Notes under the pieces: generated by a model
What the model was told of the DNA's origin: nothing
Database searches by the model: none
What the model saw: only the letters and a program-made list of their open reading frames with translations
Part shown: piece after piece, positions 22,401 to 40,400 of the stretch
Position numbering within the stretch: position 1 is the first letter of the stretch
How the letters are laid out: each line of letters begins with the position of its first letter
From: Octopus vulgaris
Taxonomy: Eukaryota
Length of the DNA stretch: 64,000 nucleotides
Assembly (NCBI GenBank): GCA_951406725.2
Contig: OX597815.1
Coordinates: 28,582,001-28,646,000 of the forward strand
Direction: 5' to 3'
Made by a program: the position numbers and the translations under genes

Positions 22401-25400
22401 ATGTGTATTAAAAGAGCTTTCCAGTGAGAAACAATGCAAACACACCACTACTTGTAGAAAGCTCAAAGCAGCGACAGATTAAATCTTTAGCTTCAAGAAA
22501 ATGACTTTTGCATTTTAAACTTTATCATCTCTCTCTCTCTCTCTCTCTCTCTCTCTCTATATATATATATATATATATATATATAATTAAATTAGAGATA
22601 AAACCACTATTAGGCAAATCAAACAGTGAAAAACATAAGCCAATACATAAAATTAATTTAAAAATATAAAAGTTATTTAAATATTTTTTTATTTTTAACT
22701 TTTATATTTTTAAATTAATTTTATGTATTGGCTTATGTTTTTCACTATTTGATTTGCCTAATAGTGGTTTTATCTCTAATTTAATATAATATAATATAAT
22801 ATATTTATACTATAAAATTGGATTTAATCCTAAATCTAATTTTTCCCTGTAAGTTTAGATTTATTCCCTAATATTATTATTATATATATACATATATATA
22901 TATATATATATATATATATCTGTATACATTAAAGTTCCTTTAACAGATTAGAAATGATTTGTTTTGAAAAGTTATTATTTTCTTTAATTTTACAGGAAAG
23001 GGGCCCAAGTCGTATATCAAGCAAAACTGAGGTGTCAGAATTTGAAATGGTAATAACTTTGGACATGTTGACCATGGTTTCGGAAGCAAATATCTTCTCA
23101 AGTACACATGCGTATATATTTGTATAAGTGTAATAGATGTATGTATGTATGTATGTATGTATGTATGTATGTATGTATGTATGTTTGTGTATCTATGTAT
23201 GTGTGTCTGTATGTATGTATGTATGTATGTATGTATGTATGTATGTATGTATGTATGTTTCATGGCAGATAAAACTGTGAAATGTAACATATTAACAGGG
23301 CCATCACATTTCTTGTAAAAATATATCAAAATTTTTACAAGGGAAAGACTTATCATTATAACATTGAAAACACATTATATCTCATAGTTGCTGAAGAGGA
23401 ACTTTGCCTGTACCAATAGATTCCCCAAAATATTTAATAAATACACCATGAAATTATCCTTTAACTGTGCACCAAGTGTAAAAATGATTTTACCAAGTAG
23501 GCCCACACTCTTTTTGCCTCTTAGCTTTGTAAACTTCTGATTGATGACAAAATTTAACAGTCAAAACTGAAATTACCCCTTCTTACTGTAAAAGTAGTGT
23601 CAACAACAAGTAATCTTGAAGATAAGATTATAACGTTGTAGATATGTGGATGAATTAATTGCTGTGTGAAGACCATCTTAAACTCTTATGCAAAGAGTGT
23701 GTGTGTGCACATGTGTATGTGTGAATGTGTGTGGGTGTGAATATATGTGTGGGGGTGGGGTGCGTGTACTGTGCATGCATATGTGTATGTGTAAGTTTTA
23801 GTTTCTGTACAAGAGGAGATGTGCCCACAGTAAAATTTCAGTGTGTATATTGTAATGTTTTTTTCAGACTAAAGATTGTTGTTATTATGACTTTTGTATT
23901 TTAACCTTTATCATCTCTCTCCATATATACATATATATATATATATATATATATATATATATATATATATATATATATATATATATATATATATATATAT
24001 TATATATCTGTATACATTCATGAGTTCTTTTAACAAATTAGAAATGATTTGTTTTGAAAATTTATTATTTTAATGCAATAATGTTTCTGATTTTATTTAA
24101 TTTTACAGCGAATGGGCCCATCACCTAGATCTAGCAAACATGAGTCAACAGAATTTGAAATGGTAATTACTTTGGACATGTTGACCTCGGTTTAGGAAGC
24201 AAATATCTTCTTTAGTACACATGCATCTATATTTGTATAAGTATAATATATGTATGTATGTATGTATGTATGTATGTATGTATGTATGTATGTATGTATG
24301 TGTGTGTATGTATGTGTGTATGTATGTGTGTGTGTATGTGTGTGTGTATGTATGTGTATGTATATGTCTATCATGATAGATAAAACTGCTAAATTCAACA
24401 TGTTAACAGGGCCACCATATTTCTTGTACAAAAATATATCAGAATCTTTACAAGGGAATGATTTATCATTATAACATTGAAAACACATTATATTTCATAT
24501 TCGCTAAAGAGGAACTCTTGTTTTATTCTGTGGATTTCATAACAAGTTCACTTCTTTTTGATGTATTATATGTAATCCAATAACAGCAATACAAATTATG
24601 TATCCCTTAAAACGGTTTTTGTGCATCTATAGAGAATACTGAACTCTCTTACACAGGATCTTGATTTTAGGACTTCTGAATAAATTATGAATACCCAAAT
24701 TGTGAAGTAAGTTATGTAATAACATGAAATTAGTTATCGGATAGTAAGAATTCAAATAAAGTAGCCCGAAAAAGGGCTTTAATGCATTCCCAGAGTATAT
24801 AGAACATAGAAGGAAATACTAATAAAGTATATTATTCTATAATCGTGAAGCATGTTACATAATAACAGGCTAATCAAATTTGAGATAACAGTATAAAGTA
24901 AATAACTCTGAAAAGGGCTTTCGTGCATTCCTTGAGAATATTACCCTCAGGGGTGGTGGTGTTGATATATTCGTGAATAAGTCACTAACCGAAATAAGTT
25001 GATTTATTGTTTAGTAAAATACTATTTACTTGTTTAAAGGCTGTACTGGATAAATTGTTAAAATAACTCTAACAGTTCAAATACTAAGAAATAAGCATAC
25101 TCAATTTCCTTTTTACCAAATAATTTAGGTAAATGAATGGGTTATTTCCCTTGTTTATATATAAGGATTCCTTCCAGGGGCCCTTCTGTCAATTTTTCAA
25201 CAGTTTGAGTATGCCATGAGGTTTCTAGACATGAGTTCTCCTCACGTGTCAAGTTTCATTGAAATTGATAAAACAATGTATGAGGAGTTAGCTAACAGAT
25301 CCACAAGCACACCCAAAGAAAGAATTGCCCACATATGAGGTAGATATCTATATACATATATGTATGTATGTATGCATGTATGTATATATATATATATATA

Positions 25401-37400: not shown

Positions 37401-40400
37401 CATATGTATGTATGTACACATAAAAGCATGTATGTATGTATATTAAAAAAAAATGGAGGTAGTATTTGGATACCGACTATTTATTTAGTGTGTTGATAAA
37501 AATCTCAAAAGGACAAAAGAGCTAAATAAAAATTTCTTATGCAAATCCTGACTGCCTACCTCTCTCTCTCTTTCTCTCTCTCTATGTATATATGTATATA
37601 TATATATATATATATATATATATATATATATATATGCACACATACATATACTTACATATAATACATACGTACATATATATGATGTTCATATTAATGATGT
37701 GTAGGGACACTGTATTTCATTATGTGACCATGATATACTACAAATTATATCTAATGTTTTTATAAGTCTCTGTTCTGCTGTGTTAACTATTACATCACTC
37801 GTTAAAGTTATCCCTACAGATTTTCTATAGAAATTATAGCCACCACTAATTTTGTTTTGACATTAATAATGCGCCATTAATATTTATGCACCAGCTTCAC
37901 AAATGTTTGTTGATAATTGGTATATTGTGTAAAGTTACACTGCTGTATTTAGTAGCTGTTTAATCAATTTGTTCATGGATGATTTATAGGTTGGCTGGGT
38001 GCTGATGAAAGAGGAAAAATTCCTGAAATATTTCATGTATTCCCACTATCCGTTTTCATCTTCGATCTCAAGAAATGTTGGAACAAAATCAGGGCTGACT
38101 ATAATTTCTATAGAAAATCTGAAGAAATAAACTAAACAAGTCGTTTAAAATCCGTTTTCCATGCTGGCATGTGTTGAATGGTTTGACAGGAGCTAGCAAT
38201 CTGAAGAGCCACACCTGACTTCAATTGTTTATTTTAGCATGATTTCTATAGCTGGATGTTCTTGCTAATGCCAACCACTTTACAGAATGTAGTGAGGGCT
38301 CTTTACAAGACACCAGTGTAGGTACCTCTTTATGTGACTCCATCATGGTAGGTCTTACATGGCAGCAGCATGTGTGCTTTTTACGTGACACCAGCACAAG
38401 TGCTTTTTATGTGGCACATTTTTTTTATCAAGTTCTTTTTCATATTTTCATAGAATTTCCTTTCAGTTCGTTCCTAGAACTTCATGGCCTCATCTTCAGA
38501 ATGAAGAGACGCTGGAATGTGTTGCTACCACTTTAGAGTAATGTTACTGCCAAAATTTGAATTTTTACTGTTTGCATTATAAACTTTTGATTGATGACAA
38601 AATTTAACAGTCAAAATTGAATTACCCCTTCTTACTATAAAAGTAGTGCCAACAACACATAATCTTGAAGATAAGATTATGATGTTGTAAATATGTGGAT
38701 GAATTAATTACTGAATGAAGACCATTTTAAATTCTTATGCAAAGTGTGTGTGTGTGGGTGTGTGTGTGAGTATATGTGTATGGGAGTGTCTGTATGTACT
38801 ATGTGTGCATATGTGTATTTGTTAGTTTTAGTTTCCGTACAAGAGGAAATGTGCTCACAGTAAAAGTGCAGTGTATTTATTGTAATGTTGAGACTAAACA
38901 TTGTTACCATTATGGCTTTTGTATTTTAACCTTTATCATCTATCTATCTATATATATATATATCTGTATACATTCATGAGTTCTTCTAACAAATTAGAAA
39001 TGATTTGTTTTGAAAATTTATTATTTTAATACAATAATGTTTCTGATTTCATTTAATCTTACAGGAAATGGTCCAAACTCCTAAATCTAGCAGAATTGAG
39101 GTGACAGAATTTGAAACGGTAATTACTTTGGGCATGTTGACCTGGGTTTAGTAAGCAAATATTCTTCTTTTGTGTAATATATATTAACAAGGCCATCATA
39201 CTTCTTGTAAATTGTATCAAATCTTTTACAAGGGAAAGGCTTATTATTATATCATTTTAACCACCTGAATGGACTTAAGCAAAAGGAAATGAAGTGTTTT
39301 GCTTAAGAATACAATGCATCCCAGTCCAAGAATCGAAACCACAATCATACAATCATGAGTCCAACACCCTAACCACTGAGCAATACACTTCCACTTTCAT
39401 TTATCATGGTTGTTGTTTATCTTTGTATGATTCAGTATCTTCAGATCTGCCTTCTCCATTCCTTTCAACATTTTTGACATTGGACCTCTTCCATAGTTTC
39501 CTTCCATTTGTATCACTTGCCTTGGATTTGTTCTCCTTTCATATCTGTACTCACCAGTCAGTAACTGATAACTCATCATAGCTCTAATTTTCATGTTCAC
39601 CTTGAGGCAAACTGTCATCAGATATCAAACTCATTTTTTGCCTAGAGTATAGTTTTATTATTGTGTATGTATACATTCATGAGTTCTTTTAACACAATAA
39701 AAATGATTTGTTTTGAAAAATTATTTCAATAAAATAATGTATCTGATTTTATTTAATTTTACAGGAAAGGAGCCCATCTCCTAAATATAGCAAGTATGTG
39801 CCAACACTATTTGAAAAGGTAATTACTTTGGACATGTTGACCTCGGTTTAAGAATTAAATATCCACACAAATACACATGCATATATATATTTGTATGTGT
39901 GTATTATATGTATGTATGTATGTATGCATGCATGCATGCATGTATGTATGTATGTATGTATGTATGTATGTATGTATGTATGTATGTATGTATGTATGCA
40001 TGCATGCATGCATGCATGTATGTATGTATGTATGTATGTATGTATGTATGTATGTATGTATGTATGTATGTATGTATGTATGTATGTATGTATGTATGTA
40101 TGTATGTATGTATGTATGTATGTATGTATGTATGTCTGTATGTATGTATGTATGTATGTATGTATGTATGTATGTACGTATGTATCTTGATAGATAGAAA
40201 CTGTTAAATCTAACATAATAACAAGGTTATCATATTTCTTGTAAAAATACATCAAACTTTTTACAAGGGAAAGACTTATCATTATAACATTGAAAACACA
40301 TATTTCATATTCATTGAAGAGGAACTTTTTTTATTCTGTGGATTTCATAAGAAGTTCACTTCTTTTTTATGTATTATATGTTATTATTTTGTGGGGATTT

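Follow-up and report, generated by a model that had tools for sequence, protein, structure and literature searches.

Results

The window analysed here, a 64,000-nt stretch of Octopus vulgaris DNA, carries a run of exons on its plus strand (Table 1). Both strands were scanned for the acceptor context shared by the predicted exons with a GTAAT donor no more than 80 nt downstream. The scan returned eight plus-strand exons, each in phase 0-0 and 54 nt long except copy C at 55 nt, together with two overlapping spurious matches near 13114; the minus strand gave zero matches at the stricter mismatch setting of the scan. The number, lengths, splice contexts and peptides of the original prediction were thereby confirmed; its label 'exons 8-15' does not correspond to gene numbering, the RefSeq protein having 483 residues before the first exon in the window. 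Exon length is divisible by three in 19 of the 20 exons tabulated for the window, copy C being the exception, and the eight repeat exons are the youngest tier of this longer run. The likely dead exon x7 has no counterpart in the O. sinensis model and does have one in O. bimaculoides, to which it is identical at 11 of 19 residues.

Table 1. Exons and tandem units of the locus, in window coordinates.
Feature	Position	Strand	Description
Five upstream micro-exons	4045-4101, 6758-6811, 9584-9628, 12892-12933, 18127-18174	+	phase 0-0, same gene
x7	20320..20376	+	likely dead exon; AT in place of the expected family donor GT
Repeat exon e8	22996..23049	+	54 nt, phase 0-0; older paralog class 1; 18/18 to P0001 566-583
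Five head-to-tail exon+intron units of ~3 kb	24109..39064	+	introns 0.84-1.73% divergent
Copy A	24109..24162	+	54 nt; unit 24109-27118
Copy B	27119..27172	+	54 nt; unit 27119-30069; peptide = P0001 584-601
Copy C	30070..30124	+	55 nt (+1 base); unit 30070-33097; splice sites intact
Copy D	33098..33151	+	54 nt; unit 33098-36078; peptide = P0001 602-619
Copy E	36079..36132	+	54 nt; unit 36079-39064; stretch used for run comparison
Repeat exon F	39065..39118	+	54 nt; older paralog class 3
Repeat exon G	39765..39818	+	54 nt; older paralog class 4; 18/18 to P0001 638-655
Six downstream exons	41568-41615, 44339-44377, 50615-50671, 54254-54304, 55817-55846, 56977-57048	+	phase 0-0
C-terminal coiled coil (first exons)	60894-60977; 63949-64000 (end of the window)	+	

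Sequence comparison assigns the eight exons to the octopus member of the C10orf67/DUF4709 family, an uncharacterised coiled-coil protein. The window gene matches the predicted RefSeq model XP_036356659.1 of O. sinensis, and family membership is indicated at both ends of the protein: DUF4709 (PF15821) is found at the N-terminus (27.8 bits against a cut-off of 27, scored on P0001 and lying upstream of the window) and a conserved coiled-coil motif at the C-terminus (39% identity to a C10orf67-like protein of a snail across 90 residues). Relatives came from an exhaustive search (21 matches), a word-index search with the full protein having returned only the self-match among 7987 candidates scored. 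Three of the 21 (P0011, P0012 and P0022) were set aside as unrelated metagenome repeat proteins that matched on an EFE-type repeat. The longer non-cephalopod relatives found have 519-670 aa, compared with 923 aa in octopus, and the excess is a repeat-built linker. In a structure model built on an alignment of 18 sequences, few of which span the linker, the array (residues 566-655) is predicted coil with almost all pLDDT values below 50, flanked by long helices; we accordingly describe it as a predicted disordered linker. A literature search, judged by its listings, found no publication on this octopus locus.

The repeat exons fall into four classes. Exon plus flank of e8, A, F and G are alike far beyond chance (z-scores of 8-38 against shuffles), although pairwise only 36-43 of 54 nt are identical, and copies A to E share 50-53 of 54 nt, each sitting in its own complete tandem unit, the five measuring 2951-3028 nt. 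The peptides accordingly make up four classes instead of eight, with A to E as a single class. Among the four old paralogs pN is 0.30 and pS 0.19, with about 11 synonymous sites per pair; among the young copies pS (0.10) exceeds pN (0.04). Positive selection on the repeat exons was considered and is not established, given the few synonymous sites and the excess of pS in the young copies. Within the young units the exons have diverged faster than the introns (7 of 55 variable columns in the exon, 57 of 2000 in the intron), which could reflect selection or conversion.

The extra base of copy C would bring a stop at the seventh codon if the exon were included. This base matches the one found in copies A, B and E at that column, and it could stem from the polishing of mixed reads. 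We compared four of 24 listed public runs on one 231-nt stretch in the copy E region; these consist of contigs assembled from the sequence of other animals, in which presence is informative and absence is not. A DNA run from another individual (X1) has an intact 54-nt exon with the diagnostic substitution of copy C, and the extra base was seen in none of the four runs, an absence that is no proof in contigs. We give about equal weight to a recent private lesion and to an error of the assembly consensus. Tolerance of a broken copy C had been put forward as an argument for exclusion or skipping, and that argument is weakened by the intact C-type exon and by the 0/4 count. Were the frameshift real, strict inclusion in series would kill this allele.

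Two of the runs, X13 and X18, were taken as transcript runs on the basis of exon-only coverage and spliced ends; neither is recorded as RNA. Introns are not covered in either, lack of cover being no proof of absence. In X18 a contig of 2119 nt passes unbroken and in frame from the 3' end of e8 into an A-type copy, and A is the only copy seen after e8 in the X18 contigs. In X13 a contig of 249 nt passes in frame from the last 29 nt of a copy into exon F, with 29 letters on the copy side against the 31-letter bar of the search. Mismatch counts in X18 suggest that two groups of copy types join F directly, a pattern that a choice of one young copy would produce as well. One X18 copy type runs into a fork, apparently with two successors. 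Copy-to-copy and F-to-G joints are not displayed in the X13 and X18 contigs, which as assemblies speak to presence only. Contig depths of 10.7 (long upstream contig) and of 20.4 and 32.9 (two copy types) would be in keeping with several copies in each transcript, but we give them no weight, as parts of a gene cannot be ranked by contig depth.

We also scored 32768 junction sets in a symbolic graph model against five X18 contig shapes. All five were reproduced by 31 sets, 30 of which require a copy-to-copy join. A plain series fits four of the five shapes, no more than do 2 of the 64 exclusive-style sets, the best of that kind, and edges can be lost in assembly; a simple choice of one of three predicts one of six features. 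Back-splicing, or an altered exon order in which F precedes a copy, also fits the X18 shapes in this model.

None of four known exclusion mechanisms was found in the array: (i) a frameshift on co-inclusion is not applicable to exons of 54 nt; (ii) there is no U2/U12 mismatch, every repeat exon being U2 GT-AG; (iii) there is no steric limit in the sense of a branch point less than 50 nt from the upstream donor, the introns measuring 646-2973 nt with branch-point-like motifs in their last 80 nt; and (iv) no docking site scored above shuffles, either with a lighter mask (0/6 tests, the observed score being reached by 5 to 19 of 20 shuffles) or with a harsher one (0/4 tests). The docking tests covered ungapped helices in single-species sequence with microsatellites masked. 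The search for docking and selector complementarity in the flanking introns, which the original prediction had proposed, yielded nothing above shuffles. Of the inverted repeats in the array (the best 25 of 579 and the best 25 of 327), most are self-complementary microsatellites.

In other Octopus species such exons appear in series, in RefSeq models that are themselves predictions and in which near-identical exons can be mis-mapped. In the O. sinensis model XP_036356659.1 five such exons follow one another (e8, two young copies, F and G), and XP_052834497.1 of O. bimaculoides has five units in series, with isoforms X2 and X3 each equal to X1 minus one unit. Compared with each other, the O. bimaculoides units agree at 14-20 residues, and compared with the window units at 7-12; because they resemble one another more than the window units, we take that array to be an independent expansion. 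Two octopus lineages and a snail have each lengthened the linker of this C10orf67/DUF4709 family by repeats, independently of one another.

Discussion

We consider it very probable that the eight exons are tandem duplicates in a C10orf67/DUF4709-family gene, at least some of them spliced together in frame and likely stacked with optional skipping, and that they yield a spacer of 18-residue repeats, variable in length, in a predicted disordered linker. The exon anatomy, the identity of the gene and the joins of e8 to A and of a copy to F are observed; co-inclusion of symmetric exons in series has been seen as these two joins and not as eight exons in one molecule, and we infer a copy-to-copy join within A to E. 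Variation in length appears in the annotated O. bimaculoides isoforms and is suggested by the branch in X18. A plausible scenario is that unequal crossing-over duplicates exon plus intron, so that each copy would keep working U2 splice sites; with every exon in phase 0-0, the gain, loss or skipping of any number of them would leave the frame intact. Copy number likely differs between individuals and species. If the lesion in copy C is real, the allele would need C to be skipped or would lose transcripts to nonsense-mediated decay. In the protein the spacer would determine how far apart two long coiled coils lie, and it would bear Ser/Thr-Pro sites.

The original prediction left two modes of splicing side by side. 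In-frame joins in contigs and the RefSeq series in two Octopus species favor cumulative splicing accompanied by some skipping, and Dscam-like exclusion is disfavored by the joins and by the failure to find any of the four mechanisms. Constitutive co-inclusion of all copies, the outcome that was to refute the prediction, is not what the data describe either: isoforms of O. bimaculoides skip units and the joins within A to E are inferred. An array in which every intact copy is always included, length is set only by DNA copy number and the frameshift in C is an assembly error would agree with the nearly identical splice sites of A to E, with the intact C-type allele in X1, with the extra base being seen in 0/4 runs and with its match to the letter of A, B and E, as mixed-read polishing would probably yield. 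We nevertheless regard this as quite unlikely, since X2 and X3 of O. bimaculoides are each one unit shorter than X1 and one X18 copy type apparently has two successors. A Dscam-type choice of one exon in eight, made by a docking site and selectors, is extremely unlikely. Tandem paralogous exons of equal length and the same frame are what is expected of such clusters (PMC6071210), but the in-frame e8-to-A and copy-to-F joins, provided that the contigs are genuine transcripts, break their defining restraint (R1 in PMC5740500), and both the series models in two species and a docking score not above shuffles speak against it. Members of such clusters should also be bridged to both flanking exons (R2, R3); here A alone is seen after e8, and joins to F are suggested for two copy groups.

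Exclusion might also be confined to the inner five copies, with e8, F and G as ordinary exons and one of A to E chosen per transcript, in which case a broken C, whose splice sites are intact, would be cheap. At least two copy-type groups seem to join F directly in X18, no copy-to-copy joint is displayed in the contigs and 2 of 64 exclusive-style sets account for four of the five X18 shapes. Set against this are the unbroken e8-to-A contig and the branch-ending copy type, neither predicted by a simple one-of-three choice (1/6 features), the O. sinensis model with its two successive young copies, the intact C-type exon in X1 and the failure to find an enforcing mechanism in the frame, U12, steric and docking tests, and we judge this reading unlikely. 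A bolder version, in which A to E are a pick-one cluster caught at birth and nested in a cumulative array, with exclusion achieved without docking, frameshift or steric limits and with exons diversifying under selection at a faster pace than their introns, strikes us as decidedly improbable. If the inner five were exclusive, the locus would be a test of how exclusion arises in an evolutionarily days-old cluster without competing RNA structures.

Stacking of repeat exons, as in the cumulative array that we favor, is an ordinary route of gene evolution. In LPA, kringle IV-2 consists of multi-kilobase, near-identical tandem exon-plus-intron units that are additive in the protein and variable in number, each kringle being a folded two-exon domain. 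The octopus locus is alike in its tandem near-identical units and differs in that these are single-exon units of 18 residues, for which variation in copy number is suggested.

Another precedent is titin PEVK, a low-complexity linker encoded by many short repeat exons in series, the length of which changes by exon duplication or loss and by the inclusion of more or fewer repeats (PMC6469411). The likeness lies in symmetric short repeat exons in series and a low-complexity linker; PEVK differs in being an unrelated protein and sequence with a very large array, compared with eight octopus exons, and in its spring function. Schistosoma micro-exon genes mostly encode small secreted proteins with a signal peptide, and micro-exons make up as much as 75% of their coding sequence (PMC4015677). 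They share with the octopus gene runs of short symmetrical exons, from which they produce variants by skipping, as the octopus gene probably does, whereas the octopus exons contribute a linker to a coiled-coil protein of 923 aa with an N-terminus that on inspection has no hydrophobic stretch.

Dscam-type clusters also arise by tandem duplication of exon plus intron and have members of equal length, same frame and related sequence (PMC6071210 and PMC5740500). The octopus exons likewise are tandem, similar in length and sequence and in the same frame. They differ in that members are joined in frame and a docking site was not found, that their peptides are predicted to be coil, where Dscam-type members encode alternative versions of a folded element, and that the array is lineage-specific, in contrast to Dscam-type members, which are conserved across species. 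A Dscam-like label given to such clusters from sequence alone is unsafe, and the locus, as the data stand, is a clear example of the other fate of tandem exon duplication, in which symmetric exons in a disordered linker stack instead of excluding one another.

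Structure of the array

We conclude that the eight paralogous exons form a real, recent and lineage-specific cumulative array, in which optional skipping of exons is likely. A sequence scan found all eight with the ends, lengths and type of acceptor and donor originally predicted, and alignments of e8, A, F and G with their flanks scored z 8-38 against shuffles.

Exons of the array, with splice bounds and state of frame 0
Exon	Position	Strand	Length (nt)	Bounds	Frame 0
e8	22996-23049	+	54	AG/GTAAT	open
A	24109-24162	+	54	AG/GTAAT	open
B	27119-27172	+	54	AG/GTAAT	open
C	30070-30124	+	55	AG/GTAAT	not open
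D	33098-33151	+	54	AG/GTAAT	open
E	36079-36132	+	54	AG/GTAAT	open
F	39065-39118	+	54	AG/GTAAT	open
G	39765-39818	+	54	AG/GTAAT	open

Exons A-E belong to five head-to-tail units of 2951-3028 nt each, whose introns diverge by 0.84-1.73%. The eight were thought to encode divergent peptides; this holds between classes but not for A-E, which are near-identical, so that the peptide classes number four. Across 24109-39064, D and E are grouped by 8 of 15 informative intron columns, with other groupings elsewhere, a mosaic to be expected of unequal crossing-over or conversion; private changes are most numerous in unit C (14 versus 5-9). Variable columns make up 7 of 55 in the exons of these young units and 57 of 2000 in their introns (Fisher p 0.0013); the counts are small and much of the exon variation is synonymous and clustered. 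Between old paralogs, divergence is 20-33% in the exons and 4-10% in the upstream flanks. The faster exon divergence may reflect selection, conversion from older paralogs or flank constraint.

An older duplication (20498-21276 and 40333-41104, 91% identity over 779 nt) lies in the introns after x7, an exon-like stretch, and after G, bracketing the entire array. About 210 nt upstream of e8 is a 200-nt near-perfect inverted repeat (22586-22785, 95% self-complementary), single-copy in the window and outside the tandem units, which is possibly a small transposon or editing substrate.

Series inclusion versus exclusive choice

The original prediction left both cumulative and exclusive use possible. 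According to PMC5740500, a validated exclusive cluster must have no in-frame joins between members. When four public runs were aligned to exon E and its flanks, assembled contigs of X13 and X18 covered the exon alone, the pattern of spliced RNA, although neither run is recorded as RNA. A 2119-nt X18 contig ends in an A-type copy, its loose end being the last 28 bases of e8 and the first two of A; an X13 contig starts within a copy, of which it has the final 29 bases, and bases 6-35 of F form its loose end, the overlap being two letters short of the bridging threshold. Both joins (e8 to A, copy to F) are in frame, and one-of-eight exclusion is therefore ruled out if the contigs are genuine transcripts. 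In the O. sinensis annotation, too, e8 is followed serially by two young copies and then by F and G, and four 20-residue units plus one of 18 residues stand in series in the O. bimaculoides ortholog, whose isoforms X2 and X3 equal X1 minus the first or second unit. The O. bimaculoides units share 14-20 identical residues among themselves versus 7-12 with those of the window, so the array expanded independently there. The cumulative alternative is supported, with likely skipping; the one-of-eight alternative is not.

A narrower possibility is that one copy is picked among A-E only. The contigs aligned to exon E displayed no copy-to-copy joint within A-E, and two groups of copy types seem to join F directly. 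Contigs of copy-to-copy junctions, with about 30 letters per side, probably fell below the length that could be aligned (the shortest piece shown was 34). X18 carries three copy types, and we used a token-only de Bruijn model to ask which of 32768 junction sets give its five contig shapes. All five were fitted by 31 sets, 30 of them requiring a copy-to-copy join and one using F-to-copy joins, and by 0 of the 64 sets with neither. A simple one-of-three model fitted just 1 of 6 features. On the other hand, a plain series model did no better than the best exclusive-style sets (4 of 5 shapes each); it also counts against our reading that assemblers drop edges and that copy types may be alleles. 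On balance we consider a choice confined to A-E unlikely. The X18 shapes also agree with F being joined back to a young copy, as would happen through back-splicing or another exon order in that animal.

Known exclusion mechanisms also found no footing. Co-included exons keep frame, every intron is U2-type GT-AG (no U2/U12 mismatch), and steric clash is inapplicable given array introns of 646-2973 nt with branch-point-like motifs within the last 80 nt. The docking complementarity that had been proposed as a check did not emerge: ungapped searches, microsatellites masked, for a site complementary to every cluster intron (upstream or downstream, whole or inner) exceeded shuffles in 0 of 6 tests.

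Nor does copy C, the tolerance of whose breakage was to be explained by exclusion or skipping, provide more than a weak basis for exclusion. In series C brings a stop at its seventh codon, and its splice sites, being the same as its siblings', do not mark it for skipping. An exon of 54 nt in DNA run X1, which comes from another individual, shares C's diagnostic substitution (position 8) and adjoining letters but lacks the extra base, and the insertion was seen in 0 of 4 runs. The extra base, which is the letter of A, B and E at that column, is about as likely to be a recent lesion as a consensus error.

Host gene and earlier duplications

A 42-residue frame around 60861-60986 matched one protein, O. 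sinensis XP_036356659.1 (P0001, 923 aa), residues 484-799 of which map onto the window exon by exon and, outside the array, differ from it at five residues. Its N-terminus matches DUF4709 (27.8 bits, cut-off 27). Exhaustive protein searching gave 21 matches, including proteins of O. bimaculoides and Argonauta as well as mollusc proteins named C10orf67-like, with one of which the C-terminal motif shares 39% identity over 90 residues. For this functionally little-characterised family, PMC5094585 reports that it may interact with NOD2, and 10.1101/743955 reports that it plays a part in cultured cells under hypoxia. A structure model of P0001, built from 18 sequences, has long helices at both ends and, over residues 329-752, coil with pLDDT mostly <50 save one helix (520-552); the array (566-655) falls inside this coil. 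The O. bimaculoides ortholog is annotated as two misleadingly named genes, P0002 and P0003, the N- and C-terminal halves that together match P0001. In both octopus species (P0001, P0002) the linker of this family also carries, further upstream, a KKKSA-type repeat, and in the protein of the snail Gigantopelta (P0010) it has a repeat of eight residues; both are unrelated to the array. By eye, the list of open reading frames shows decayed retroelement-like frames in introns (14360-15920, 45007-47500, 57950-58756), reverse-transcriptase-like at 14657-15181 and 57950-58756 and retrotransposon-like on the minus strand near 45007-46900.

Of 20 listed window exons 19 are divisible by three, and several older pairs are also alike (z up to 17 for flanks of the upstream exons e2, e3 and e5; z 14-15 for exons 50615 and 54254), so the gene habitually duplicates symmetric micro-exons in series, the eight being the youngest tier. 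Stretch x7 (20320-20376) has AT where the family donor GT is expected, although a weaker GT three bases upstream would give a 54-nt in-frame version; the O. sinensis model lacks it, all O. bimaculoides isoforms contain a homolog, and it is likely a lost exon.

Comparison with known systems

Judged from listings, our literature searches found no paper on the octopus locus. The titin PEVK array shifts in length as exons are gained or lost and as splicing includes a larger or smaller number of repeats (PMC6469411); the octopus array works likewise without being a member. To schistosome micro-exon genes (PMC4015677) it bears a loose likeness, again without membership. From a Dscam-type cluster it differs on the defining test, having in-frame joins between members.
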